Source: an uncultured Deinococcales bacterium (lineage in GTDB: Bacteria > Deinococcota > Deinococci > Deinococcales > JAAFIG01). From it: a stretch of 27,146 bases of DNA. The stretch is taken from contig CAXTTL010000037.1 in assembly GCA_964247135.1 (NCBI GenBank), positions 1-27,146 of the forward strand. The letters are read 5' to 3'. Below are positions 1 to 19,739 of this stretch, piece by piece. The position numbers were made by a program, and so were the translations under genes. Under the pieces are notes generated by a model, which worked only from the letters and a program-made list of their open reading frames with translations, was not told where the DNA came from and did no database searches. The number at the start of each line of letters is the position of its first letter. The first letter of the stretch is position 1.

Positions 1-50
1 GCTGTGGGCGCTTGATCTGGATCGTAGCGGTCTAAACTTGGAGAAGCCAT
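1..50 (-). CDS. 5' start of a further gene of the respiratory operon, truncated by the window edge (MASPSLDRYDPDQAPT...)
   Basis: ATG at 50-48 directly follows the TAA (53-51) of the upstream ORF. RBS-like AAAGGGGG lies just upstream and the frame is open to the edge. Confidence 0.6.
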   Translation of the reverse strand, partial: MASPSLDRYDPDQAPT

Positions 51-368
51 TTACGCCCCCTTTCTGCTGCCCGGACGGGCAATGGTGCTGGCTCGAGTAT
101 CGGACACGAGCGCGGCAGCCAAAGCGGTCAACAGCACGGTGATGCCCATGTAGGCAAAGCCACGGTTCATGGGCATGGTTGGGTCACTCGAGCGCAAAGA
201 AGCAGGCAAGAGGTTGGCGGCGATGTCCTCGATGCTGCGCAAAAGCGCGACCCCAGGAATTGGGGCGTCAGGGTTGGCGTGGGCAAACGCGCCCAAGGTC
301 AGAACGATGAACACCATTCCGAGTCCGACCAGTGCGAGTGCGATGAATCCTTTGATGGCTTGGTTCAC
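51..368 (-). CDS. Small membrane protein (105 aa, about 2 TM helices), probable accessory subunit of the respiratory complex
   Basis: Hydrophobic segments at the N- and C-termini. The GTG start overlaps the upstream TGA (GTGA, 365-368), indicating translational coupling. Confidence 0.7.
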   Translation of the reverse strand: MNQAIKGFIALALVGLGMVFIVLTLGAFAHANPDAPIPGVALLRSIEDIAANLLPASLRSSDPTMPMNRGFAYMGITVLLTALAAALVSDTRASTIARPGSRKGA

Positions 369-673
369 TTGCTTGTCTCCTTTGGCGCTTCTGCTTTTGG
401 TGTTGGTAAAACCGCATCTTTGTCATAACCAAGCAAGCGTTCAAACAGGTGGTTCTTGACTTTCACATTGCCGTTCTTGCGTTCCGTGCCGTACATGATA
501 AAGCCCATGACAGACAGTAAAAACAGCAAAATAATCAGGTAAAACATGATTGAGAATAAACCTGCGGTGGTCGGTAACTTGAAAAATGCCATTAACGCCG
601 CATAACCCCTCGAGAACACCGAGATCGCAGCAAAAAACGTGATACCCGTGAACAACCACATGCTGCCTTTCAT
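365..673 (-). CDS. Small membrane protein (102 aa, 2 TM helices), probable accessory subunit
   Basis: RBS GAGGAG precedes the ATG. Two hydrophobic helices and a charged tail. Lies 26 nt downstream of cytochrome b. Confidence 0.75.
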   Translation of the reverse strand: MKGSMWLFTGITFFAAISVFSRGYAALMAFFKLPTTAGLFSIMFYLIILLFLLSVMGFIMYGTERKNGNVKVKNHLFERLLGYDKDAVLPTPKAEAPKETSK

Positions 674-699
674 TGCGTTCTCCTCATCATCCCTCGAGA

Positions 700-2007
700 T
701 TAGGCTTTATCGGCGGCGATTGCGGCGGTTTGGGCTTTGGCAGCCTCGAGCGCTTTTTGTTCACGACGGTTTCTGGCGCGTTGCACCAAATGCCAGATCG
801 CACCGCCGCCAAGCATGATCATGCTGACCAAGTACACATACGGCGGGTCGCGGTGAATGTCGGCGATGGAGAGGATGATCAAAATGCTGAAGCCCAACCA
901 GGCGACCAGCCCGTAAATGCCGACCAGCGTCCAGAATGGGCGCTTCCAGGGGTTGCGCTCTGGGCTGTAATCCAAAAAGACCACAATGAACGCGATCAGT
1001 GGAATCAGCACGGTTTGCAAGGTGGCGCTGGCTGGCTTCCAGAGTTTCATCATTTGGTACAAGCCCAAGAAGTACCAGTCGGAAAGGATTGGGTTTGGCG
1101 TGACGCTGTAATTGGCGGGCGAACCAGTCTCGACTGGCACAAAAATCGAGATGGCGACCAGAATAATCAAGAACGCCACCACCGAATACCAGGGCAGGTT
1201 GATGCGTGGCACGCGACCCGCACCGCCGACGCCCTTGTCGCCTTTACCTTTGCGGGCAAAATAAGCCTCGACCAAAATAATGGTCAAAATGCTGAGCATA
1301 AAGTGGGCGCTGTAAAAACGCGTTAAGGTTGCAGGACCAATCGAAAGTCCTGAAAGCATGTAATTTGCCATGATGTGACCAATTTGGGCAACGCCCAAGG
1401 TGGCTTTCAGAATTTGTGGAACTATCGGCAAGGCTGCAATGGTCGGAATGTCCTGGAAGTTATCGACAAAAGTTGGGAAGGTCGCAAAGACCTTGGTTGC
1501 CCAGAGCGCACGTTGATTCCAGATCAGCAAGTAACCCGTCAGACCCGAGAACATCGACAGGATCAAGCCAATCACGGTCAAGATGTAGGAAAGTTGATTG
1601 TAAGATTTGAACTCGCCGCGAAAGTACATGCGGTAAATGCGCAGGGTCAACGCCACAATCAAGGCATCCGCGCCGTACTTGTGCAATTGACGCGTCAGGT
1701 AAATGACCCAGCCCGATTGTCCCTCGAGAATGTTTTTGACCGAGAGCCATGACTGGTAAATGGGTCCAGTCGCGTCAGGAACGTAATAGAACATCAAAAC
1801 GGTGCCTGTGACAATAGTGATGTACCAGAACATCAATGCCATACCACCCAGCATGAACCACGGGTCGGTTTTGACTTTCTCCCTCGAGTTCTCGTCGAAC
1901 AGGTCTAGGTTTTTGGCGCTTTTGGTCCACCAGATTGCAATTTTTTGTCCGACGCTTGGACCGGCTTTTTTGGTTGCTGCCGCGCTTGGAATTGTTGGTG
2001 CTGCCAT
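700..2007 (-). CDS. qcrB: Cytochrome b of a Rieske/cyt b complex (unsplit b6+subunit IV, about 8 TM), atypical in lacking the heme bH ligands
   Basis: Motifs LGG...TG..LMFYYVP, RQLHKYGA, TGYLLIWNQ, TLTRFYSAH, PANYSVTPNPILSDWYF (PEWY equivalent) and RNPWKRP. Start placed at ATG 2007 after AAAGGGGG rather than at TTG 2046. Confidence 0.9.
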   Translation of the reverse strand: MAAPTIPSAAATKKAGPSVGQKIAIWWTKSAKNLDLFDENSREKVKTDPWFMLGGMALMFWYITIVTGTVLMFYYVPDATGPIYQSWLSVKNILEGQSGWVIYLTRQLHKYGADALIVALTLRIYRMYFRGEFKSYNQLSYILTVIGLILSMFSGLTGYLLIWNQRALWATKVFATFPTFVDNFQDIPTIAALPIVPQILKATLGVAQIGHIMANYMLSGLSIGPATLTRFYSAHFMLSILTIILVEAYFARKGKGDKGVGGAGRVPRINLPWYSVVAFLIILVAISIFVPVETGSPANYSVTPNPILSDWYFLGLYQMMKLWKPASATLQTVLIPLIAFIVVFLDYSPERNPWKRPFWTLVGIYGLVAWLGFSILIILSIADIHRDPPYVYLVSMIMLGGGAIWHLVQRARNRREQKALEAAKAQTAAIAADKA

Positions 2008-2054
2008 TGGCGATCCCCCTTTAAAATGAGTGTCTTGATTTGTCAATCTCGAGT

Positions 2055-2720
2055 TTAACCGTAACCTTTAATCACCACATTGCCACTCTCAAGCACAAAT
2101 CGAAATGGGAACGGGGTGCGCGGTGCTGGACCAGAAACCACATGACCCACGCGCATCACGCCAGCCACATCTTGGACTTCGACTGGATTGTACACGCTCA
2201 GGTGGCAAGGGCAACTGAACAGTGGGTGTCCTTTTGGACCCGTTTCGCCGCAGTAATTGAAACCGCTACAAACCTCGTCGCCAGTGTGGTACTGAAAAAT
2301 ACAGCCCAAATGGGCGCAGATTCTCGAGACGACCACCATCGAGTATTTTTCGCCTTTGTGATCGGCTTCGCCGTAACCTTCGCGCAAATCGCCGCCGATG
2401 TTGCCAATTTTGGTTGGGTCAAGCACCGGGACTTTGGGAACGCGCAAAATATAACCGGGAATATCGGTTTGTTGCGTGCCTTTGCTCGAGTATTCTGGGG
2501 TGATTTGGGTGAACACAAATTCTTTGACGTCCCACTCTTTGGGAAATTCGTCGAGCGAGGCGGCGATCAAGTCTTTGTTTTGTGGAATTTCGGCGGTGGG
2601 AATCGAGAGTGGTTTGAGGTCGGGCTTTAAAAAGCTTAACAGTGCCGAACCCACACCTCCCAAAACCGCCAGAATTGGAATGGCGGTGATGCCTTTGAGG
2701 ATGGTGCGACGGTCAATCAT
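2055..2720 (-). CDS. qcrA: Rieske [2Fe-2S] protein of the bc-type complex
   Basis: Tat-like DRRTILKG plus TM anchor. Box1 CAHLGC, box2 CPCHLSVY, C-terminal GPAPR. ATGA overlap with the upstream cytochrome c gene. Confidence 0.92.
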   Translation of the reverse strand: MIDRRTILKGITAIPILAVLGGVGSALLSFLKPDLKPLSIPTAEIPQNKDLIAASLDEFPKEWDVKEFVFTQITPEYSSKGTQQTDIPGYILRVPKVPVLDPTKIGNIGGDLREGYGEADHKGEKYSMVVVSRICAHLGCIFQYHTGDEVCSGFNYCGETGPKGHPLFSCPCHLSVYNPVEVQDVAGVMRVGHVVSGPAPRTPFPFRFVLESGNVVIKGYG

Positions 2721-3727
2721 GGCTTGACTCCTTCTGGTGGCTTGACACTGGCAATTGGTGGATCAACACTGTAACTAAACGAACGGATATACGCCACCAC
2801 ATGGTTGATTTCGGCATCGCTGAGTCTGTCCACCCATTGCGGCATTGCCGAACCGTAAATACCATTTTTTAAAGCCGTGCGCAGTTTGTTTTCCGAACGG
2901 TTGAACAAACGCCGTGGCTCGTGAAAATTGGCTGGCGGTGGTTGCAGCATCGCGCCCGAGTGACCCTTGCCCCAACCGTCTGCGCCGTGGCACATGTTGC
3001 AGTTACCAAAAATGCCTCGACCATCTTTTTGCTTGGATTTGTTGGCAATGCTGGTCGGATCAAGCTTGAGCGGCACAGTCTCTTTGAGGTTTGGCTCGAG
3101 CTTGACGTAAAGCGCCATCGCCAAACTCCACAGGGCTTCTTTGTCTAAAGTCACCGGTTGTTGAACTGGCACTGGTTTGCGCTCAACCTTAGCCGTCGCA
3201 GGGTCTTTGACTTCGACAAAGGCGTTCATGGTGACATCCACGGGACTTGGCTCGCTTTTTAAACCGTCTTGCAGTTTCAAAAAGGCTTGGAATGGGCTGT
3301 CGTCCAAGGTTGGCAGCATTGCGGGCGTAATCTTGTCTTTTAAAACATCGAACAACAAATTGCCCAGAACCAAATTTGGATTGCCCACAGGCAGAAGCTT
3401 GACATCTTCGCCCTCGATCCACTTGCCCGCATAAGAGCCGTTCTCGGCAAGCTCGCGTCCGTTGAGGTAATCGGTTTTTTGACCGTCTTCATTGGTACGC
3501 TCGAGCGGATTGACTTTGTACTGCTCTGGGTATTTGGGGTAATTCCATTTGTAAGCCACCTCGTCGGCGGTTACATTTGCCGCGCCAGGCAGTTTAATAT
3601 CACCCTTCAGCGAGACATCGCCGCCAATTTTGCTCGAGTCGGCTTTGATGCTGCACGCCCCCAAAAACAGTGCCAGCGTGATTGAAGTGCTGATTGCAAA
3701 AAATGGCTTCATTAAAACCTGCTTCAT
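2717..3727 (-). CDS. Lipoprotein monoheme cytochrome c (long N-terminal region plus C-terminal class I c domain)
   Basis: Lipobox LFLGA-C. Heme site CNMCH with distal Met in GSAMPQW. ATG 3727 overlaps the upstream TAA (TAATG). Confidence 0.85.
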   Translation of the reverse strand: MKQVLMKPFFAISTSITLALFLGACSIKADSSKIGGDVSLKGDIKLPGAANVTADEVAYKWNYPKYPEQYKVNPLERTNEDGQKTDYLNGRELAENGSYAGKWIEGEDVKLLPVGNPNLVLGNLLFDVLKDKITPAMLPTLDDSPFQAFLKLQDGLKSEPSPVDVTMNAFVEVKDPATAKVERKPVPVQQPVTLDKEALWSLAMALYVKLEPNLKETVPLKLDPTSIANKSKQKDGRGIFGNCNMCHGADGWGKGHSGAMLQPPPANFHEPRRLFNRSENKLRTALKNGIYGSAMPQWVDRLSDAEINHVVAYIRSFSYSVDPPIASVKPPEGVKP

Positions 3728-3924
3728 TAAAACCCCTGTGCCGGAATCCAAGAAATTCCGAGGGCGATAAAAATAATAAACAAAAACACCGCGATAGCCG
3801 AGGCTGGAACGTTGCGTTCGCCCACCCGAATCCCAGCGATTTCGTGGGTGTGATCGCCGTGAATGTCCTGAAAATTGCTGGCGAGTTCAGTTTCGGTTTC
3901 GGTGCTGGGCGTTTCGAGACTCAT
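3727..3924 (-). CDS. 65-aa single-TM protein resembling the N-terminal anchor of CcoP/FixP
   Basis: RBS GGAGG precedes ATG 3924. HEIAGIRVGERNVP followed by a TM helix parallels the CcoP pattern H(E/V)xDGI.E.DNPLP followed by a TM helix. Confidence 0.6.
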   Translation of the reverse strand: MSLETPSTETETELASNFQDIHGDHTHEIAGIRVGERNVPASAIAVFLFIIFIALGISWIPAQGF

Positions 3925-3969
3925 TGGTTCCTCCGATGTGAGCGAGACGCTCGAGATCACTTTATTGGT

Positions 3970-4263
3970 TTAATTTGCTTCTGGCTCTGGGCGTTCGATG
4001 CTTGGGGCACGACCATAGAGAAAATCGTTGTCCGGTTCGATCAAATTAAATTTGACGCGTTCGGCGTTGTGAAATTGACCATCCAAATACGCCCAAAGCG
4101 CCGACAAGACCAGCAGTGAAAAAATCACACCCACCGCAATCAGAACCACCCAAGTGCCTTTGTAATCCAAACCGACCGCCGGCACGTGGTCTGCCAGGGC
4201 ACTCGAGCCGAGCAAAAACACCAGCAATACGATTGATTTTTGAAAACTCGAGCGGTTGATCAT
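3970..4263 (-). CDS. ccoS: CcoS/FixS-like cbb3 oxidase maturation protein with an extra N-terminal signal-like segment
   Basis: A TM helix followed by LWAYLDGQFHN..R...LI matches the CcoS pattern W..KSGQFDD. Starts 3 nt after the ccoO stop. Confidence 0.65.
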   Translation of the reverse strand: MINRSSFQKSIVLLVFLLGSSALADHVPAVGLDYKGTWVVLIAVGVIFSLLVLSALWAYLDGQFHNAERVKFNLIEPDNDFLYGRAPSIERPEPEAN

Positions 4264-4266
4264 GAT

Positions 4267-5184
4267 TTAGTGTCCTTTGGTGGCTTTCGGTGCTCCTGGA
4301 TACTCGCGCTCGACGTTGCCTGGTTGCAAGGTTTTGGCATCGTAATACTTTTCGCGTCCTGGTTTGGCGGTCAAATCTTGATCGGCAGCCAATGATTTGA
4401 GGTATTCGACCACGTACCAGATTTGCTCTTCGTTTAAAGTTTGATCCCAGCGCGGCATACGCGTGCCTGGAACACCTCGAGCGACCTTGTTAAACCAGTG
4501 TCCATCGGTGAAGTCTTTGTAGCGCGGCAAGTGGAAGTTGGCGGCTGGCTTGGGGTAGAACATTTTTGCCAACGGCACATCGGCACGACCCTCGTAACCG
4601 TGGCAGGGGGCGCAGTTTTGGTTGAAGATACCGCGTCCAGAGCCGGCGTTTGCCGCACTGAAAGGCGATTTGAGGTTGCGGTATTTTTCGGGCACATTCA
4701 CATCTTTGGTTTCCCAAGCCCTGGTGTTGCGCGTACCGAGCGACTGAATAAACGCCACCAAATACCGAATGTCGGTGTCGTTCAAGTAACTGTAGCTGGG
4801 CATGAACGAACCAGGCAGGTAGGAACGTGGCGATTTGAGGTGACCGATGTGCCACTCGTCGGGGTAAAGACCGCCCTCGTAAGTTAAATCTGGACCGTTG
4901 CGCAGCGTCCCCAGAAGGTTCACACGGTCATAGGCAAAGTCGCCAGCCTGCGAGGTTGGACCCGTGCCCTCGTCTTGGAAGCGCACAAATTGACTGTGGC
5001 AAACATAGCAGTTCTCGCGTTGGAAAATCGCGCGACCCTTTAATTCCATTGCCGTGTATGGACGCAAACCTGGGGTGGGTTCTGGGTTAAAACTTGCCGC
5101 CGGAACAATCACCACCAATGAGGTCACGCCGCAAACGAGCAGCAGGAAAGCCAGTCCAATAATAAAATTTCTTGCATTCAACAT
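4267..5184 (-). CDS. ccoO: cbb3-type oxidase subunit II fused to a second cytochrome c domain (diheme)
   Basis: The CcoO part has LRPYT..EL.GR.IF.RENCYVCHSQFVR, GTLRNGPDL and SFMPSY. The second domain has CAPCH and GTRMPRW. RBS AAAGGAGG. Confidence 0.9.
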   Translation of the reverse strand: MLNARNFIIGLAFLLLVCGVTSLVVIVPAASFNPEPTPGLRPYTAMELKGRAIFQRENCYVCHSQFVRFQDEGTGPTSQAGDFAYDRVNLLGTLRNGPDLTYEGGLYPDEWHIGHLKSPRSYLPGSFMPSYSYLNDTDIRYLVAFIQSLGTRNTRAWETKDVNVPEKYRNLKSPFSAANAGSGRGIFNQNCAPCHGYEGRADVPLAKMFYPKPAANFHLPRYKDFTDGHWFNKVARGVPGTRMPRWDQTLNEEQIWYVVEYLKSLAADQDLTAKPGREKYYDAKTLQPGNVEREYPGAPKATKGH

Positions 5185-5201
5185 CTTCTGACCTCCTTTG
5201 T

Positions 5202-6635
5202 TTAATCGTCTGCCGCAGCAGCAGTTAGGGCGGGGGCGACGCTCGAGCCTCGAGAGACTTCTTGGCGCCTGGCAGAACGCACGGTTTGCACGGCGTTATA
5301 GGCGAAAATATAAACGCCGAAAATCATCACCGTGGCAGCCATCCAACGCACCATGACAAACGGTTTTAAGAAGGGCACGGTTTGTTGGACATTGATGCCC
5401 ATGTTCCAACTGGCGGCTTGAATAAAGCCCATGGTGGTCCAGGTGATAAAGAACATGATAAAACCGACCGAGAAGGTCCAAAAGTGAACCACGACCAGTT
5501 TTTTGGAGTACCACTCGACTTTGTAAAGGCGCGGCACGGTGTAATAAATTGCCGAGAACAGCACCATGCTAAAACCGCCAAGCATTGCCAAGTGCGCGTG
5601 GGCACTGACGATGCCCGTGAAGTGCTGATACCAGTTGATGCTGCGAACAGCCTGCAAAGAACCCTGAAAGCTGGCAAGGGCGTACATGATCCAACCGAAG
5701 GTCATGAAACGAAGCGGTAAATTCCAAGCCAGGTTGTCCCAACGCCCTTGGGTGGACAAGAAGAAATTTGCGCTGGCAGAGTACACCGGAATGCTCATTA
5801 AAACGCTCGAGCCGATGGCGAAGGCTTTTAGCCATTCTGGGACGGGCGACTGAATAATATGGTGCGCCCCGATGCCGGTGTAAAAGGCAAAGTTGCCCCA
5901 GAAGCCGATGAGTGAAAGTTTGTGCGAAAAGATTGGGTTGCCAGGTTCGCCTTTTTTACCGACCGTTAATTTGGGCAGCAAAAAGTAAATGATGCCGATG
6001 CCCATGGTCGTGATCCAAAGCCCGAGCACGTCGTGGGCGTAAAACCAGTTGGCGATGGCGTCGTTTAAGCCGTCCAAGGGTACGAAGGTGCGGTTGCCGA
6101 CAATCCAAACCATGCTCATGCCGATAAACGAACCCATCCAGTACCAGACCGAAACATAAAGTTGCGGTTCGGTGCGGCGGGCGACGGTCATGAAAACATT
6201 GACGGCGCTTAAGACCAGCAAGATCAGCATGAACCAATCCATTGGCGGAATCAACTCTGCCCATTCACGACCCTCAGAAAAACCGTTTAAAAGCGTGAGC
6301 GGAATCAATGCGGCAAAAATATTCCAGAGCCAGCCCGTCATGGTGCCCAGACGTTCAGAATAGAGCGGGGCTTTCACCAGGCGCGGCAGCATGTAAAAGC
6401 AAGCGCCGATGCTCGCCATCGACACCCAAGACATGACCACCGTGTTGACGTGCGAGGGACGAATGCGGCTAAAAGACAACCACGGCACACCCTTGGTGAT
6501 GTCAGGAAACATAAACTGCGTTGCCATGAACACACCAAATGTCATGCCAATCACGCCCCAGACGATGGCAGAAGTCAACCACAACTTCGCGCTCGAATCG
6601 GGAGTGTCCGGAAAGAACCGATCTAATAACGTCAT
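5202..6635 (-). CDS. ccoN: C-family (cbb3-type) heme-copper oxidase subunit I
   Basis: RIRPSHVN (heme b His), GREWAE, LYVSVWY, WFYAHDVLG (CuB His), FYTGIGAHH (helix VII Tyr plus CuB His pair), FQGS, AHAH (b3/b ligands). About 12 TM helices. Confidence 0.93.
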   Translation of the reverse strand: MTLLDRFFPDTPDSSAKLWLTSAIVWGVIGMTFGVFMATQFMFPDITKGVPWLSFSRIRPSHVNTVVMSWVSMASIGACFYMLPRLVKAPLYSERLGTMTGWLWNIFAALIPLTLLNGFSEGREWAELIPPMDWFMLILLVLSAVNVFMTVARRTEPQLYVSVWYWMGSFIGMSMVWIVGNRTFVPLDGLNDAIANWFYAHDVLGLWITTMGIGIIYFLLPKLTVGKKGEPGNPIFSHKLSLIGFWGNFAFYTGIGAHHIIQSPVPEWLKAFAIGSSVLMSIPVYSASANFFLSTQGRWDNLAWNLPLRFMTFGWIMYALASFQGSLQAVRSINWYQHFTGIVSAHAHLAMLGGFSMVLFSAIYYTVPRLYKVEWYSKKLVVVHFWTFSVGFIMFFITWTTMGFIQAASWNMGINVQQTVPFLKPFVMVRWMAATVMIFGVYIFAYNAVQTVRSARRQEVSRGSSVAPALTAAAADD

Positions 6636-6907: not shown

Positions 6908-7921
6908 TTATTTTGAACCCAGCGTATCATTGCGCTTTAAGAACTTCTCGAACAAGCCAGGTTTTCGGGGTTTCAAGGCTTTGGGTTCCAAGCCCAGCGC
7001 TTCGCGCAGAGCTGGAATGATTTTGCGGGTTTGTTCCATGCCAACCTCGAACAGCTCGCGGCTAAGCTCAAAATCAAACACGCCCGAAGGCACCTCCTGA
7101 CCGACATGCAAGACCATGTCCGCCTGATTCATGTGATAACGCTCGAGGTGGTCGCGGCTGATGCTGGCAGCCCGCAAGATCACCTCGATGGCGGTTTTGG
7201 GGACAGTCGTGGGCGCATCGAAGCCAACATCGACCGCCAATACAAACGCGTCCGTCAGCAAGTCCCGCGCCACACTGACCGGAACGTTGTTGACCACGTG
7301 CCCATCTGCCAAATGACGACCATTTAACAAGACCGGCGGGAAAACACCAGGGATCGCGCAGGAGGCGATGGCAGACTCGAGCAACAAACCCGTCTTTAAA
7401 ACCACCTCTTCGCCGGCGATCAAATCGGTGGCGACAAACGCCAACGCCAGGTTTAAATCTTCAAAACGCACGCCGCCCACCAGCGGCTGCAAACTCTGAC
7501 GGAGCGGCTCGAGGCTGGCAATCCCAGGACCGGACACGCCAGATAAAATCACTTTTTGCCAACCCGAGAGCGTTTTTAAGGCGTCAATCAAATCAAAACC
7601 CTTGCTGGGCTTGTTCGACAAGACCTGACGCAAATGCGCGTAGCCGCTCGAGCCGATGGCTTCGATCAGGCGGTAAATCTCGGTTCTCGAGCGCGACTCA
7701 AAGGCATTGGTTTGCGTGCCTGGGGCTTCGTCCTCGCGTCTGAAACCTGCCGTCTCGAGCGCGAACAACATGCCAGCCAAAGCGCCCGAGCTGCTGCCCG
7801 CGATGGCGCCGACTTCGATATCGGCTTGTTGCAATGCCCGCAAGACCCCCAAATGCGCCGCGCCGCGCACACCGCCACCACCCAAAGCCAAAGCCAATTT
7901 GCGCCCACGTTGATCCTTCAT
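6908..7921 (-). CDS. Patatin-like phospholipase
   Basis: GGGGVRG oxyanion loop, GSSSG nucleophile elbow, ASCAIPGVFPP, and DGH in place of DGG. Leaderless start with TAGGGT at 7933-7928. Confidence 0.9.
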   Translation of the reverse strand: MKDQRGRKLALALGGGGVRGAAHLGVLRALQQADIEVGAIAGSSSGALAGMLFALETAGFRREDEAPGTQTNAFESRSRTEIYRLIEAIGSSGYAHLRQVLSNKPSKGFDLIDALKTLSGWQKVILSGVSGPGIASLEPLRQSLQPLVGGVRFEDLNLALAFVATDLIAGEEVVLKTGLLLESAIASCAIPGVFPPVLLNGRHLADGHVVNNVPVSVARDLLTDAFVLAVDVGFDAPTTVPKTAIEVILRAASISRDHLERYHMNQADMVLHVGQEVPSGVFDFELSRELFEVGMEQTRKIIPALREALGLEPKALKPRKPGLFEKFLKRNDTLGSK

Positions 7922-12762: not shown

Positions 12763-15546
12763 ATGGCAAATCTTTTTGAAATCATCTCGAGCTTGGTGGC
12801 AGGATTAATCCTGCTTGGGCTTCACATCAACCGTGAACGCTGGGGATTTTTGCCAATTCTGGGGTTCTTGATGTGCACCACCTTGGCGATTTTTGTTTTT
12901 GATTTCACACCATTTGCCTCGGCGTCCTCGAGTGCCTTGTACCTCACCCAATTTGGCTTGGCAGTGATCCTGATTTTTGATGGTTCCAAACGCTGGCGCT
13001 CGAGTTTGATCCTGATTCTGGGCGTTGCGATTCTTGCCAGCATTTTGTTAAACCTCTCGGGCGTTTGGAATTCCGAAGCCAGTCGGTACGCCATTGTCAA
13101 CACGTTGTCGTTGCTGGTTGCGGGCTTTTTGATGTGGATTTTGTTCTCGCAACTTCAAAGCACGGGATTGCTTCAAATGTATGCCATGTTTGCCGTTGCC
13201 GGAGCGAGCGATGTCGTCCTGAAAAAATTACTGATTCCAAACGGTTTTGATTTGCTCGAGACTCGCTTGCTGTTGATGGTCTTGATCGGACCCGCCTTTG
13301 CCTGGTATTTGGAACGCACCAATTTAGAACTTCAAACCAGCTCCAACACGGCGCTCAACAACGCCACCTACAAGGCACTGATGGGAACGCTGGCGGTCAT
13401 TGCCCACGGTAAACCGAGAGCCTCGAGCAAAGATGCCGTCACGACCTTTTTTGATACCGCCGAGGTGCTCGCCCGAGGCAGCGAAGACGACCTGTACCCA
13501 AAACTCTTGGACAGCGCCCTGTCCTTGATCCCGGGCGCTCAGGCGGGAAGTTTGCGCTTGCGAACGGGTGACACGTTTCGTTGGGTGGCACAACGTGGAC
13601 ACGACGACCTGATCCTCAACCTCGAGATCGACATGTCCCAGGCGCTCGAGTTTCATGGTGACCCCTTGGGTTGGTACCGTGGAACGCCTGTCATTCGGGT
13701 GCGACCCGCCTTTGACCCGCAGGTGAATGCCAAACTTCCAACCTCGCGCCAAAGCGTCAAAAGCGTGCTGGTGTTACCGATTTTGGTCGGGCATGAAATC
13801 GTTGCCGAAATCAGCCTCGACAGTTTCAAATCCGAAAAAGCCTTCTCGGACGAATCGGTGTCCGCCGCCCGACAATTTGCCCTGCAAGCCGCCGCATTGA
13901 TCGCCGCCAAGCGCGAACAATTCAACCTCGAGTCCAGGTTGCGCGAGTTTGAAGTGCTCGAAAGTGTCACCAGCGCCCTGCACAACGCCCACAGCTTGGA
14001 AGACATTTGCGAACGCGTGATGCTCGAGACGGTGCGTTTGATCGGCTCGCAACACGCCACAGTCTTGTTAATTTCAGACGATACCAGAAGTTTAAATGTT
14101 CAAAGCGCCTGGGGTTTGTTCAAATTTTTGCTTCATAAAGGCGTCCCTCGCGGCAATGGTTTGTCATGGTCTGCGATTGAAACCCGCCGCATGATTGAAA
14201 CTGTCGATACCCAACGCGACCCACGCAATTACGCCCCCCACGTCAGCACGCCGCTGCCGCCGCATTCTCAACTGACCACGCCACTTTTTGATTCCAACGG
14301 CACGGCTCTCGGCGTCCTGTTGTGCGCCAGAAATTTACCCGATCAATTCAGCGAACTCGACAAGCGCCTGGTCAATGTGATCGCCAAAGTCACCGCCAGC
14401 GCCCTCGAGCGGGTTCGGGTGACCGATGACTTGGAGCGCCGGGTCATGGAAAGCCAAACCCTGCTGGCACTCTCGCACCTGCTCGAGAGCACCGACCCGC
14501 AATTGGTGCACGTTGCCCTGAAACGCATCATGGAACTTGGCGGCGCAGATGTTGGCATTGTTGGGGTCATGCGCGACGGTGTGCTGCGCATGGAAACCCA
14601 CACGGGTAAAATCTCGGATGAGTTGATGGCAAGCCTGCAACAAGGCTCGAGCGCCGAAGAGGTTTCGTTTGTCAACCTCAAAGCCCAGCAAGGTTTGGAC
14701 ATTCGGCTCTCAGAGTTGCAACAATTTGGCGGTCTGAACAACGCCGGCTTAAAACGCGCCTTTATTTTCGGACTCGAGACCGAAGGTGCGCCCAGAATCA
14801 TTGGTTTGTTCCGCCATACTGACATGCCCTGGACGCCCAACGAACGCAACCTGATCGAATCGGGCACAAAGACTTTGGGGGCGTTGCTGAGCCGCCTCGA
14901 GCGCGTCGCCACCCTGGAGGCAGCCTACGAGGGCGCACTGCTCGCCGTCGGCAAAGCCCTGGAAGCCCGCGACCTCGAGACTTCAGACCACACCGAACGC
15001 GTGGCGCAACTCGCCGAACGCATGGCGAAAGCCTTACACCTGCCCGACAACGAAATCCGTGCGATTCGTTGGGGCGCGTACCTTCACGATGTCGGCAAGT
15101 TTTCGATCCCAGACACAATCTTGCACAAGCAAGGCGCACTGACCTTAGAGGAACGCAACTTCATTCAAACCCATCCTTTTGTCGGTTACAACCTGATTCG
15201 CACCATTCCATTCCTGCCCGAAAGTAGCCGCAGCATTGTCTTGCACCATCACGAACGCTGGGACGGACGCGGCTATCCGAACGGGCTGAAAACCGAAAGC
15301 ATTCCGCTCGCCGCGCGAATCTTTGCCGTTTGCGACGTATTTGACGCCCTCAGCCACAAAAGGATTTATAAAGAAGCCATGAGCCTGCAAGACACCATGC
15401 TCGAGTTACGCGCCAGCGCCGAAAATGGTCACTTGGAAGCCAGGTTGGTGCAGTTGCTTGAGGATTTGATTGTCTCTGACTTGCAATTGCGCGATTTTGT
15501 GATGTCCAACTCGAGGTTGAACACCAACGACTCGAGGTTGAATTAG
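12763..15546 (+). CDS. Membrane-anchored GAF-domain HD-GYP cyclic dinucleotide phosphodiesterase
   Basis: About 6 N-terminal TM helices, two clear GAF domains and a probable third. HD-GYP motifs EARD..T..HTERV, LHDVGK, HP, HHHERWDGRGYP, DVFDAL and RIYK. Confidence 0.88.
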   Translation: MANLFEIISSLVAGLILLGLHINRERWGFLPILGFLMCTTLAIFVFDFTPFASASSSALYLTQFGLAVILIFDGSKRWRSSLILILGVAILASILLNLSGVWNSEASRYAIVNTLSLLVAGFLMWILFSQLQSTGLLQMYAMFAVAGASDVVLKKLLIPNGFDLLETRLLLMVLIGPAFAWYLERTNLELQTSSNTALNNATYKALMGTLAVIAHGKPRASSKDAVTTFFDTAEVLARGSEDDLYPKLLDSALSLIPGAQAGSLRLRTGDTFRWVAQRGHDDLILNLEIDMSQALEFHGDPLGWYRGTPVIRVRPAFDPQVNAKLPTSRQSVKSVLVLPILVGHEIVAEISLDSFKSEKAFSDESVSAARQFALQAAALIAAKREQFNLESRLREFEVLESVTSALHNAHSLEDICERVMLETVRLIGSQHATVLLISDDTRSLNVQSAWGLFKFLLHKGVPRGNGLSWSAIETRRMIETVDTQRDPRNYAPHVSTPLPPHSQLTTPLFDSNGTALGVLLCARNLPDQFSELDKRLVNVIAKVTASALERVRVTDDLERRVMESQTLLALSHLLESTDPQLVHVALKRIMELGGADVGIVGVMRDGVLRMETHTGKISDELMASLQQGSSAEEVSFVNLKAQQGLDIRLSELQQFGGLNNAGLKRAFIFGLETEGAPRIIGLFRHTDMPWTPNERNLIESGTKTLGALLSRLERVATLEAAYEGALLAVGKALEARDLETSDHTERVAQLAERMAKALHLPDNEIRAIRWGAYLHDVGKFSIPDTILHKQGALTLEERNFIQTHPFVGYNLIRTIPFLPESSRSIVLHHHERWDGRGYPNGLKTESIPLAARIFAVCDVFDALSHKRIYKEAMSLQDTMLELRASAENGHLEARLVQLLEDLIVSDLQLRDFVMSNSRLNTNDSRLN

Positions 15547-17555: not shown

Positions 17556-18636
17556 TAACGGCTCGAGTTTGCTGCTCGAGAATCATGAACCTCGAGCGTT
17601 TGGGTCTGACAAACTTTTGATTATTGCAGGGTGGAAGAAAAATCGGCGCTTTTGGTACCATTGCTCAGCTTGACCGAAACGGAGGTGGTTGAGCTTCCGC
17701 TGACCACGGCGGTTGAGCCGTCGGCGCCGGTCATCGTCACCAGGCTGCCGCTGCCCAACGTCCCCGCGCTGTTCCAACCCCAAGAATTGTATTGAAAGCT
17801 GCTTTGCCCCGCGCTGCCTGCCAAACTTGTGGTCACGGTAAAAGCCTTGTTAAACCCGCCGCCGCCCGAATACTTGTATTTGAGCTGAAAGGCTGGGAAA
17901 TCAAACTGACAGGCTGGCACATCAAAAAAACCCACCTGTTCGCAGGTCGCCGTGCCCTGAATCGGTCCAGAACCCAGATAGGACTGATCGAAGACCAGGT
18001 TGTAGGTGAATGAAACTTTATAATCGCTCTCGCTGACATACCTGAGCACCAGAAAATCAAGTGAGCCATTGAACTTGGTTTTGACCACCGCCTTGGAGTT
18101 GTCTGGGTTGGTGTATGAATTTCCTCCGTAGTCAAAATTGGCATAGACAATGTGCTGCGTGTAACCGACGCCGACGGTTCCGACCGAACTGACCGTGTAA
18201 CTTCCGGTGCAGGTCAGGTGTCGGGCTGGGTCGGCGCAGTCCACGGTTTCGTTGACGGCTGTAAAAGGATTGAGTTGGGTCGCCGGAGTTGCTCCGACCA
18301 TCGCTCGAGAGGCAAAATACAAACGCGTGGCTTTCATGGCTGCCGCCGCAACCGAATCTGCCTGAACTTGGGTAAAACCTGAAGGCTCTGGCGTCGAGCC
18401 GCCACAAGCAGTCAGGAGAGAACAAACCAGAAAATACGCAAGGATCAAACTGAAACGCGCCATGTTAAAACCCCCAATTCCATCTCAATATAGCAGGAGT
18501 TTCAGATGGGTTTAATGTCGTATTGGTAAAGTACCGTGACTCAAATGCCGTTTTGCTCGAGGTATTTGCGCGTGGTTTGGTCTGACGGGATGATATTCAA
18601 TTGGCAGAAATTGGCGTGAGGGCAATCACGGGTTAA
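17511..18636 (+). repeat. Diverged direct repeat of the GlcG gene 3' end (17511-17555 and 18592-18636) flanking a lipoprotein gene
   Basis: 38 of 45 nt are identical by hand alignment. The copies encode DIELAEIGVKAITG* and DIQLAEIGVRAITG*. Confidence 0.85.
17621..18463 (-). CDS. Hypothetical lipoprotein, Ser/Thr/Gly-rich and beta-rich
   Basis: Lipobox LLTA-C followed by GGS. Four further Cys. RBS GGGGG. Confidence 0.8.
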   Translation of the reverse strand: MARFSLILAYFLVCSLLTACGGSTPEPSGFTQVQADSVAAAAMKATRLYFASRAMVGATPATQLNPFTAVNETVDCADPARHLTCTGSYTVSSVGTVGVGYTQHIVYANFDYGGNSYTNPDNSKAVVKTKFNGSLDFLVLRYVSESDYKVSFTYNLVFDQSYLGSGPIQGTATCEQVGFFDVPACQFDFPAFQLKYKYSGGGGFNKAFTVTTSLAGSAGQSSFQYNSWGWNSAGTLGSGSLVTMTGADGSTAVVSGSSTTSVSVKLSNGTKSADFSSTLQ

Positions 18637-19739
18637 GGATTTGCTCGAGATTTGTTGTCAAAAACCATCATGAACATAAACCCGATGACCAACACAATGA
18701 TTTGCGTAAAACCACCAAAATAAAGTCCAATCGGAATCGTGGCAAATGCCATCAGTGCCGCCAGGAACCTCGAGTGGTTCGGGGCAATGCCAACAATCTG
18801 ACGAAACCAAGTTTGACCCAGCAGGTACAAGCCAATACCAAGACCCAAACTCCAGGCGGCGGCTTGCGAGTTGCTGTGCAGTTGCTCGATTACTTTTTTG
18901 ATGCCAGCCGCCGAGATCACGATGCCCAGAATCAAGACCAGATGCGCGTAACCATAACCGAGCAAGGCAATTCGTGCTCGAGTTAACGCGTCGGCTCGAG
19001 ACAGCGCCCGCTCGCCCCTGGCATCGTCTTGGTTAAAATAGACCCACCACAGACAGGCGCTCAAGGTCAGCCCCAGCAGGCACGCCAGAATCAAAGGCAG
19101 ACCGATGGGTTCTTGTTTGGCACCGACCCCAATACCCACCACCGATTCGCCGAGCGCAATCAAAATCACCAAACCGTGACGTTCGGCAAAATGACTGGCT
19201 TGCAAGGTGAAACCGCGCTCTCGACGAAAAAAGCTCGAAGAGATCAAAATCAAAAACGCCAACAGCCACAGCAAAATTCTGAATGGATTCTCGAGCAGCG
19301 AGGCGGCAAGCAAACACGCGCAGGCGCTCAAATTGAACGGCGCGATGTCCCAAATGGCTTGGGCTGAAGAATTGTTCGCCTGGGTGAACAAGCCCAAATG
19401 AATTAAAATGACCAACAGGTATGCCAGAGCGAACGCCAAGCCAGCCGTTTGAAAGGCGAGCGGTATTGCCAGCGCGATGATGAGAAAACCCGCCATCGCC
19501 AATAAAATGAGCACTCGAGGTTTGAAGAGTTGCATGTTGGTGTTGTTGGTCAGCCAAACATAACCCGAATACATCCACCAGATGATCGCCAAGATGAGCG
19601 GAATTTCCAACCACTCGAGAATTGTGTGCGCCCCGAGCACCAGTTCGGTCAGTTGCGTGATGGTGAAAACAAAAATCAGATCAAAAAACAACTCGAGCGT
19701 GCTGACTTTAACGGGTTCGCTCGAGGTCTCCGAGTGCAT
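18633..19739 (-). CDS. ltrA: Low temperature requirement protein A family membrane protein
   Basis: VSTLELFFDLIFV, WW, HFAERHGL..LIALGES, WW.YF, Y.H. Leaderless, with TAGAAT at 19751-19746. Confidence 0.9.
   Translation of the reverse strand: MHSETSSEPVKVSTLELFFDLIFVFTITQLTELVLGAHTILEWLEIPLILAIIWWMYSGYVWLTNNTNMQLFKPRVLILLAMAGFLIIALAIPLAFQTAGLAFALAYLLVILIHLGLFTQANNSSAQAIWDIAPFNLSACACLLAASLLENPFRILLWLLAFLILISSSFFRRERGFTLQASHFAERHGLVILIALGESVVGIGVGAKQEPIGLPLILACLLGLTLSACLWWVYFNQDDARGERALSRADALTRARIALLGYGYAHLVLILGIVISAAGIKKVIEQLHSNSQAAAWSLGLGIGLYLLGQTWFRQIVGIAPNHSRFLAALMAFATIPIGLYFGGFTQIIVLVIGFMFMMVFDNKSRANP

Follow-up and report, generated by a model that had tools for sequence, protein, structure and literature searches.

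A Rieske-linked cytochrome b without heme bH ligands, co-encoded with a four-histidine, ferredoxin-tailed cytochrome b: a possible two-cytochrome route for the second electron of quinol

Where does the second electron of quinol oxidation go when the cytochrome b that receives it has lost the ligands of its second heme? This question is raised by a gene at positions 700 to 2007, minus strand, of a contig from an uncultured Deinococcales bacterium (CAXTTL010000037.1, positions 1 to 27,146; this whole stretch of 27,146 nucleotides is referred to here as the window). The gene encodes a cytochrome b, called b1 in what follows, and lies beside genes for a Rieske protein and a cbb3-type oxidase. The four axial histidines of such cytochromes have been held invariable, and the Q-cycle has been held universal for Rieske/cytochrome b complexes; b1 belongs to a multi-phylum clade that breaks the four-histidine rule under selection. 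The initial annotation, made from the letters of the window, had described b1 as lacking the whole heme bH/Qi half of the protein, and had proposed that it hands both electrons of quinol to the Rieske/cytochrome c chain with no transmembrane transfer, that is, as a linear quinol oxidase. As argued below, the ligands are indeed missing; the missing half of b1 is probably supplied by a partner, namely a second cytochrome b of the same operon, and not abandoned.

The residues on which the argument turns are listed here, numbered along the 448-residue open reading frame (ORF) that starts from TTG (2046); the homologues begin at M14, the ATG at 2007, from which the frame is intact over 435 residues. 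Residue counts, here and below, refer to 119 of the 120 best b1 relatives, namely those of at least 300 residues.

700-2007, minus strand: cytochrome b1, full-length (b plus subunit IV type), identified by PF00033, PF13631 and PF00032 and by alignments
1681-1683, minus strand: H122 (CAC), heme bL ligand on helix B, conserved in 119/119
1639-1641, minus strand: R136 (CGC), at the heme bH ligand position of helix B
1303-1305, minus strand: H248 (CAC), heme bL ligand on helix D, conserved in 119/119
1267-1269, minus strand: E260 (GAG), intramembrane glutamate two residues before the lost ligand, invariant in 119/119
1261-1263, minus strand: Y262 (TAT), at the heme bH ligand position of helix D
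1072-1083, minus strand: S322-D323-W324-Y325, Qo-site motif, aligned with PEWY by hhalign

All three Pfam matches lie above the curated cut-offs (PF00033, E 3.6e-23; PF13631, E 1.4e-17; PF00032, E 6.4e-05). Among solved structures, the top phmmer match to b1 is cytochrome b6 1vf5_A (E 2.2e-20), and in this alignment H122 and H248 fall on the ligands of heme bL, and R136 and Y262 on those of heme bH. When 33 family members are aligned, profile to profile (hhalign), with 70 canonical cytochromes b, the register is the same, at probability 100, so that codons and both alignments agree with the assignment of these four residues made initially. A large MAFFT alignment of 239 proteins set the canonical helix D histidine on E260 instead; we treat this as a mis-register, as phmmer and hhalign agree on Y262. 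In other words, b1 has two of the four axial histidines, and these are the bL pair; three methods of alignment agree that both bH ligands are missing. The remaining motifs noted at the outset are likewise visible in the phmmer alignment: b6 'FYCLGG' faces b1 'WFMLGG', which removes the cysteine of heme ci, and 'W.SG' of b6 helix C faces 'YILT', which replaces the helix C glycine. No His/Asp pattern follows helix D in the alignment and no Qi residues are recognisable there. The side of the protein facing the positive (P) side of the membrane was said to be retained, and so it is: the bL-side glycines are kept, the motif TGYLLIWNQRA is present and at least 95% conserved, and so is each residue of SDWY, the equivalent of PEWY, with D323 found in 81/81 locus genes. 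An identity as a b6-type subunit with heme ci was considered and rejected, since b1 reads FMLGG where the b6 type has CxGG, and is unsplit where the b6 type is divided into b6 and subunit IV. Among solved structures, nothing matches b1, or the second cytochrome b described below, beyond canonical cytochromes b.

One of the features initially counted among the losses needs to be narrowed. Namely, the loop between helices D and E was described as a Gly/Lys linker without the His/Asp pattern of a Qi site. The absence of the pattern stands; the linker itself, however, is an insertion (KGKGDKGVGGAG, residues 267-285, window 1192-1248, minus strand) found in b1 of the Deinococcales type only. In b1 of other phyla the D-E loop is short, but there is a C-terminal extension with two more hydrophobic segments.

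Could the two substitutions be a sequencing or assembly error, or the mark of a decaying pseudogene? Each of the two codons is, after all, one base away from a histidine codon. Yet the frame is intact, and position 136 is arginine in 99 relatives, lysine in 20 and histidine in none, nor does histidine occur there in any of 81 locus genes; in the same large alignment, 105 of the remaining 119 representatives do have histidine at 136. What is more, the locus genes write residue 136 with eight codons (CGC, CGG, CGA, CGT, AGA and AGG for arginine, AAA and AAG for lysine), Y262 with both tyrosine codons, and E260, present in 81/81 loci, as both GAA and GAG. Because the residue is kept through synonymous codon change, position 136 is held by selection, and purifying conservation is strong throughout the gene. 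We consider an error or pseudogene refuted by the codon turnover in the 81 loci and by the residue counts, its probability being negligible. Judged by these sequences, the double loss of the bH ligands is concerted, ancient and selected and not random decay, as the initial annotation had also maintained. It had further proposed to look at homologues from ccoN-linked operons, and had taken relatives with histidine at both positions as the evidence that would speak against it. At position 136 the comparison gives R/K in 119/119 and hence no such relatives; at position 262 the residue is Y in 93, R in 18, H in 6, W in 1 and F in 1.

The relatives themselves form a well-delimited group. An exhaustive search against cluster representatives gave a sharp break, with about 15 full-length proteins above 240 bits and ordinary cytochromes b below 160, and a word-indexed search returned 838 proteins at E <= 1e-5 among 7999 scored. 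Public sequencing runs contained at best 0.08 or less of the sampled words; the contigs drawn from them belong to relatives at 88-99% identity and leave the R136 codon uncovered, and one contig piece spans 1211-1365 and hence Y262. Four representatives outside the b1 clade (P0169, P0257, P0146 and P0129) are also without histidine at the helix B bH position, having R, R, F and Y, respectively; further bH-less lineages of cytochrome b may exist.

It was also claimed that the whole half of b1 facing the negative (N) side is gone, and here the evidence points the other way. The N side keeps near-invariant residues of its own: D48, F50, D51, E52, Y138, R139, K147, E260, R281, D359 and R369 are each at least 95% conserved. 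Mean identity along helix B is 0.75 in the N-side half versus 0.74 in the P-side half, with 0.97 in the P half of helix C and 0.82 in the ef loop. This is not a decayed half. Given no bH ligands and no conserved substitute ligand, we infer that heme bH is absent from b1. One may ask nevertheless if the old bH pocket binds a second heme or another cofactor through lysine, tyrosine or glutamate, or through a residue of a small subunit. Lysine at 136 in 20/119, Y or H at 262 in 99/119, the invariant E260, and the retention of G67, the glycine of the helix A 'LGG' that makes room for bH, would all suit such a cofactor. That said, arginine, a poor heme ligand, occupies 136 in 99/119, Y, R, H, W and F are all found at 262, Holophagaceae-type members have arginine at both positions, and the helix C glycine is replaced, and we therefore regard a cofactor bound by unconventional ligands as very improbable.

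If b1 has a heme bL and no bH, is there anything nearby that could take the electron onward? In the window, a tightly packed row of same-strand genes spans positions 1-6635 of the minus strand, and its parts, as named by Pfam, are as follows, b1 itself being given above.

5202-6635, minus strand: CcoN-like catalytic subunit of a C-family (cbb3-type) heme-copper oxidase; PF00115 (COX1), E 3e-72
4267-5184, minus strand: CcoO with a second c-type cytochrome domain joined to it (CcoO/P-like, two CxxCH); PF02433 (FixO), E 2.6e-36, and PF00034/PF13442
3970-4263, minus strand: small membrane protein sm97, 97 residues; ORF without Pfam family
2717-3751, minus strand: monoheme c-type cytochrome with a lipoprotein-like N-terminus; PF00034, E 3e-11, residues 242-324
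2055-2720, minus strand: divergent Rieske iron-sulfur protein, 221 residues, with twin-arginine signal RRTILK and boxes CAHLGC and CPCHLSVY, read from the sequence
365-673, minus strand: small two-helix membrane protein sm102; ORF
51-368, minus strand: small two-helix membrane protein sm105; ORF
1-50, minus strand: beginning of cytochrome b2, from the start codon over its first 16 codons, truncated where the contig ends; reads MASPSLDRYDPDQAPT, matching L004 from 11965

The operon runs past the contig start, for positions 50-1 of the minus strand are the ATG and 16 codons of this second cytochrome b. After about 7 missing bases, b2 resumes on another contig of the same genome (C326, 4 kb; L001 982-2130), with an MvhD gene next, and in two public runs a contig from a relative reads across window base 4 into b2. 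In a record 98% identical (L004), b2 is a protein of 401 residues with a PF00033 match (E 7e-31) and a C-terminal 2x[4Fe-4S] ferredoxin domain, followed by a protein with PF02662 (MvhD/FlpD, E 2.8e-21). An end-to-end alignment of b2 with cytochrome b6 of known structure (E 1e-34) shows all four histidines, none of which varies among 25 or among 68 members of the family. The b2 consensus YYHGA has no heme ci cysteine. In b2, after six helices, the last of which ends in PRKKHRY, come two CxxCxxCxxxC motifs; because of this ending, we read the iron-sulfur domain as lying in the cytoplasm. The sole PF02662 match in the genome is on C326, and four cysteines are visible in that ORF; its cluster is presumably a [2Fe-2S] one. 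The full operon order is then ccoN, ccoO/P, a small protein, cytochrome c, Rieske, b1, two small proteins, b2-ferredoxin and MvhD.

This arrangement is shared far beyond the Deinococcales. A scan of one genome per species gave 280 relatives among 304 candidate stretches, of which 80 loci were kept, and neighbours were counted by using the window proteins as queries against all ORFs of the kept loci. The closest b1 loci (71-98% identity) are in metagenome-assembled genomes (MAGs) labelled Deinococcales or Deinococcota. Others, at 37-44%, are labelled Vampirovibrionales, Melainabacteria, Obscuribacterales, Holophagaceae and Solibacteraceae, with further ones in Fimbriimonadaceae, Armatimonadetes, Anaerolineae, Symbiobacterium thermophilum and others. 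Within the order of the bacterium studied here, b1 and b2 occur together in each of the 18 further genomes of family f1, and in the other four families b1 finds no comparable score. ccoN lies upstream of b1 in 58 of the 59 loci having at least 5 kb of upstream sequence; the exception, L082, labelled Bacillati bacterium ANGP1, has more than 5 kb upstream and no ccoN/ccoO match, with cytochrome c, Rieske, b1, b2 and MvhD present. Nearly every locus has a gene for a c-type cytochrome placed between those of CcoO/P and the Rieske protein. In 68/80 loci the b2 gene is complete and encodes two CxxCxxCxxxC motifs. The sequence reaches 2500 nt or more past b1 in 66 loci, and in 64 of these b2 is next to b1; the two without an adjacent b2 (L067 and L081) have an orthologue at another place of the genome (548 and 546 bits). 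MvhD/FlpD follows 65 of the 68 complete b2 genes. Upstream of ccoN or beyond MvhD, no acceptor or donor gene is conserved across phyla, and there are only lineage-specific neighbours, such as the gene for ribosomal protein S16 and ORFs that match no Pfam family.

The Rieske gene, which precedes b1, deserves a few words of its own. In the Pfam search no family, PF00355 included, matches the window protein, which matches the b6f iron-sulfur protein weakly, at both cluster boxes. Among its homologues in the loci, one of which lies before b1 in every case (79/79) that has sequence there, box II, CPCH[LF]S.[YF], is present in 79/79 and box I in 77/79; the serine of box II is found in 79/79 and the tyrosine in 67/79. 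These two residues we take to be the hydrogen-bond donors of high-potential centres, which raise the potential of the cluster. The spacing between the two boxes is 24-37 residues across the family, and the genome has thirteen further Rieske-domain matches elsewhere. As for the small proteins, sm97 is at the same position in those Deinococcales-type loci that reach that far, and a weak homologue of it lies downstream of MvhD in Holophagaceae-type loci; in loci of the Deinococcales type sm102 is kept between b1 and b2, as it is, though weakly, in three loci of the Melainabacteria type, and sm105 is conserved among Deinococcales-type loci. The oxidase is placed in the C family by way of its FixO partner and not by a tree, and the label cbb3-type is to be read with this in mind. 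Directly upstream of ccoN, on the same strand, is a gene for a patatin-like phospholipase (6908-7921, minus strand). The remainder of the window consists of ordinary housekeeping genes, together with a GAF and HD-GYP-type (HD_5) signalling protein (12763-15546, plus strand) and an LtrA-family protein (18633-19739, minus strand). Nothing links these two or the phospholipase to the cytochrome b finding.

What would the bacterium use this operon for? The genome is 84% complete, and absences hold for its assembled part. It has NuoF and two genes of the futalosine pathway to menaquinone; it has no cytochrome bd and no PF00115 match besides the CcoN of the window, and its cytochromes b are b1 and b2 alone, which makes b1 the sole Rieske-linked one. 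The predicted link to a cbb3 enzyme is thus borne out, b1 lying in an operon of ccoN, ccoO/P, cytochrome c and Rieske genes whose oxidase is the only heme-copper oxidase of the assembled genome. As far as genes can tell, the operon is the only route from menaquinol to oxygen found in that genome, and b1 must for this reason be a real quinol-oxidising subunit.

The reading that, in our opinion, best brings these observations together, and which we hold tentatively, at a little short of an even chance, is that b1 and b2 form a single electron wire. Menaquinol would be oxidised at the Qo site of b1, the first electron travelling through the Rieske protein, cytochrome c, CcoO/P and CcoN to oxygen, and the second passing to heme bL of b1. 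With no bH in b1, this second electron would hop sideways, from bL of b1 to bL of b2, through a heterodimer contact that corresponds to the interface of the bc1 dimer. It would then cross the membrane through bH of b2 and continue over the two [4Fe-4S] clusters of the b2 tail to the [2Fe-2S] cluster of MvhD in the cytoplasm. The argument behind it is simple: bL of b1 needs an outlet because bH is absent while the bL ligands are invariant, and a transmembrane low-potential path is very probably kept because a second cytochrome b is always co-encoded. Two ends to the wire may be envisaged. If the acceptor were a cytoplasmic low-potential carrier, the complex would perform quinol-based electron bifurcation and export reducing power; if it were menaquinone at an N-side site, it would run a Q-cycle in trans. 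The box II serine and tyrosine of the Rieske protein would fit the bifurcation option; by analogy, a high-potential Rieske centre working with menaquinol would give a second electron of very low potential. A still broader claim, which we regard as possible but doubtful, is that these loci make up a widespread class of supercomplexes, in which a bH-less b1 passes an electron from bL to bL to b2-ferredoxin/MvhD and menaquinol oxidation by oxygen through cbb3 drives reduction of a low-potential cytoplasmic acceptor, a bifurcation that exports reducing power in place of the Q-cycle, and that surveys have missed this class by filtering for four histidines.

How does the linear quinol oxidase proposed at the outset fare by comparison? 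In its full form, it would be a quinol:cytochrome c/cbb3 module from which both electrons leave via the Rieske protein, with bL at most a transient store, no Q-cycle, and b2-ferredoxin-MvhD as a separate system. The want of bH ligands and of Qi-type residues in b1 speaks for it, b2-type modules function elsewhere without b1, and part of the energy would still be conserved through the protons released to the P side. The same reading, however, must account for the strict co-occurrence of b1 and b2 across phyla and for bL ligands that are invariant in 119/119, which is hard to explain if bL is a dead end. In bc1, moreover, a bH knockout fails to sustain normal turnover, as far as the accessible text of that work describes it (PMC4330944), and the N side of b1 is conserved and not decayed. 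With a four-histidine b2 co-encoded, and adjacent in 64/66 loci, the claim that the enzyme has no transmembrane low-potential transfer is not supported, and a linear quinol oxidase, though possible, is no longer the simplest reading; we consider it decidedly unlikely.

The direction of the proposed wire can also be questioned, and the origins of b1 and b2 are instructive in this respect. In a quick maximum-likelihood tree of the four-helix region (74 rows, the canonical ones taken from the match list of b1 itself), a split with support 100 sets b2, together with cytochrome b-Fer4-FlpD triple fusions and cytochrome b-Fer2-FAD-NAD fusions, apart from b1 and the canonical proteins; b1 is monophyletic with support 97. 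Accordingly, b1 would be a derived ordinary cytochrome b of the Rieske type, and b2 would come from a lineage with cytoplasmic redox modules. Some members of the latter are single chains of cytochrome b, 2x[4Fe-4S] and MvhD, and since these triple fusions tie the parts together, b2-ferredoxin and MvhD would form one unit. In 80 metagenome loci (L098-L177) the triple fusions adjoin neither a Rieske nor a b1 gene; their loci have a UbiA-family gene upstream in 72/80, a COX2-like gene in 50/80 and a hemerythrin gene downstream in 60/80. A case in point is L141, 3991-10443, which encodes a COX2-like protein with a CuA motif, COX1, UbiA (heme O synthase-like), the triple fusion, an unassigned ORF and hemerythrin; no cytochrome c or Rieske gene is among the seven ORFs scanned there, and 79/80 of the triple-fusion loci have no match to the window's own cytochrome c or Rieske protein. 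As the triple fusions sit beside a ba3-like oxidase, b2-type modules accompany two families of heme-copper oxidases. Another set of b2 relatives, P0334-P0360, of about 640 residues and some of them labelled Accumulibacter, is fused to Fer2, FAD_binding_6 and NAD_binding_1 domains (FNR-like); these would seem to be NAD(P)H-linked transmembrane cytochromes b. One further protein, P0361 (463 residues), unites N- and C-domains of cytochrome b with those of FixO and cytochrome c, so that parts of complex III and of cbb3 are directly fused in it.

Relatives of this kind speak for b2 as an input wire, in which a cytoplasmic low-potential donor would feed the hemes of b2 outward, either to a quinone site or, via the bL and Qo quinone of b1, to the Rieske protein and cbb3. 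The outcome would be a cytoplasmic-reductant:O2 oxidoreductase or a ferredoxin-assisted Q-cycle. The FNR-like modules fused to b2 relatives are normally NAD(P)H-oxidising, the triple fusions stand beside a CuA-containing ba3-like oxidase without cytochrome c or Rieske protein (among the seven ORFs of L141, and by similarity in 79/80 loci), and the membrane potential favours outward flow of electrons. That said, an input wire would leave the second electron of b1 itself without an outlet in a genome that needs a menaquinol oxidase, the fully conserved Qo acid and proton-exit motif argue for real quinol oxidation, and no donor enzyme is conserved nearby. We consider it unlikely, if somewhat less so than the linear module.

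Returning to the wire from the Qo site of b1 to the cytoplasmic clusters of b2, several points weigh against it and should be stated together. The physical pairing of b1 and b2, the direction of electron flow and the acceptor are all things we infer, the pairing from co-occurrence. In the quick tree b1 and b2 are not sister paralogues. Judging from the triple-fusion loci, b2-type modules can work without b1 or a Rieske protein, and in the FNR-like fusions electrons from NAD(P)H would by analogy move outward, opposite to the proposed wire. b2 itself retains a Qo-like TGYLLVWD motif, a role for which the wire does not explain, and beyond MvhD no acceptor gene is conserved. Finally, neither a b1-b2 fusion nor any other long form of b1 occurs at E <= 1e-30 among 8000 scored proteins, which counts weakly.

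Why would it matter if the two cytochromes did work in this way? The pair would be a natural counterpart of the cross-inactivated dimer that was built to prove bL-bL transfer, coupled moreover to cytoplasmic iron-sulfur chemistry, and a physiological use of transfer between monomers would become directly testable. So would the bifurcation at Qo that feeds cytoplasmic reductants, as has long been proposed for anammox complexes. It would also bear on the aerobic chain of Melainabacteria, which is used in arguments on the origin of respiration. In any case, labels such as "bc1" or "b6f" for b1-type genes overstate what is known.

It remains to set the operon beside known systems. Joining a transmembrane diheme cytochrome b to cytoplasmic [4Fe-4S] clusters is familiar from NarI-NarH, HdrE-HdrD, and QmoC with the MvhD domain of QmoB, and MvhD serves as a [2Fe-2S] connector in such redox loops. 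The diheme cytochrome there has the NarI/HdrE fold and not the b6 fold, and to our knowledge none of these wires is combined with a Rieske/Qo subunit. With bc1 and b6f complexes, on the other hand, b1 shares the cytochrome b fold with both Pfam domains, the bL ligands and a PEWY-type Qo site, and its gene is adjacent to those of a Rieske protein with both cluster boxes and of a c-type cytochrome as acceptor. It differs from them by the absence of bH ligands, of the heme ci cysteine and of recognisable Qi residues, by the second, non-identical cytochrome b with an iron-sulfur tail in its operon, and by a Rieske protein too divergent for PF00355.

A functional precedent is man-made. Namely, in the cross-inactivated bc1, according to the accessible text of that work, one half carries H212N (no bH) and the other G158W (no Qo), and the enzyme turns over via bL-bL transfer, and a double bH knockout of it does not turn over (PMC4330944). 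As would be the case here, one half offers Qo and bL only, and the other supplies bL and bH; in the account given there, the construct is a cytochrome b-b fusion whose path ends at a Qi site (PMC4330944). In our case the halves are natural, separately encoded and of different origin, the end is iron-sulfur, and the pairing is a proposed one. Among natural systems, one of similar gene content is that of aerobic Melainabacteria, in which petB/petC-like genes next to a type C oxidase were described in the main text as a 'complex III/IV combination' and read as b6f-like (Matheus Carnevali et al., PMC6349859). The b1 loci include many MAGs of Melainabacteria, Vampirovibrionales and Obscuribacterales. 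The main text of that account makes no mention of missing bH ligands, a second cytochrome b, a ferredoxin domain or MvhD (PMC6349859). For the anammox Rieske/cytochrome b complexes, which have a cytoplasmic NAD(P) oxidoreductase subunit, bifurcation at Qo to a low-potential reductant has been proposed, and Rieske potentials of +303 and +335 mV in a menaquinone organism are said, in the part of that paper available, to imply a bL as low as -475 mV (PMC12954380). There, as here, a Rieske/cytochrome b core is coupled to a cytoplasmic redox module; unlike the anammox flavoprotein, the module here consists of 2x[4Fe-4S] and MvhD attached to a further cytochrome b, with cbb3 as the high-potential branch.

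In the full-text literature we found no description of an operon of b1, b2-ferredoxin and MvhD, nor of a Rieske-linked cytochrome b without both bH ligands, the figures and supplements of PMC5600118 and Supplementary Note 6 of PMC6349859 lying outside what was covered. Kao and Hunte, in the text accessible to us, regarded all four histidines as invariable and discarded every sequence in which one or more of them was lacking, noting only Pyrobaculum as being without the fourth (PMC4122944). In the text of Dibrova et al. 2017, the helix 2 ligand histidine is replaced by E/Q in the cyanobacterial subfamily K, long cytochromes b of clade G' occur within 'large conserved operons ... of an unknown function', and subfamily H consists of large proteins with cytochrome b domains (PMC5600118); clade G' and subfamily H possibly overlap with the b1 clade. 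For Pyrobaculum and subfamily K, the loss of the bH (bn) ligand was taken to suggest loss of the heme, and the function was called obscure (PMC4122944, PMC5600118). In those cases, as the accessible texts present them, one ligand is lost, in one genus or in some cyanobacteria (PMC4122944, PMC5600118). In the b1 clade, by contrast, both ligands are lost, in several phyla and with a fixed set of partners.

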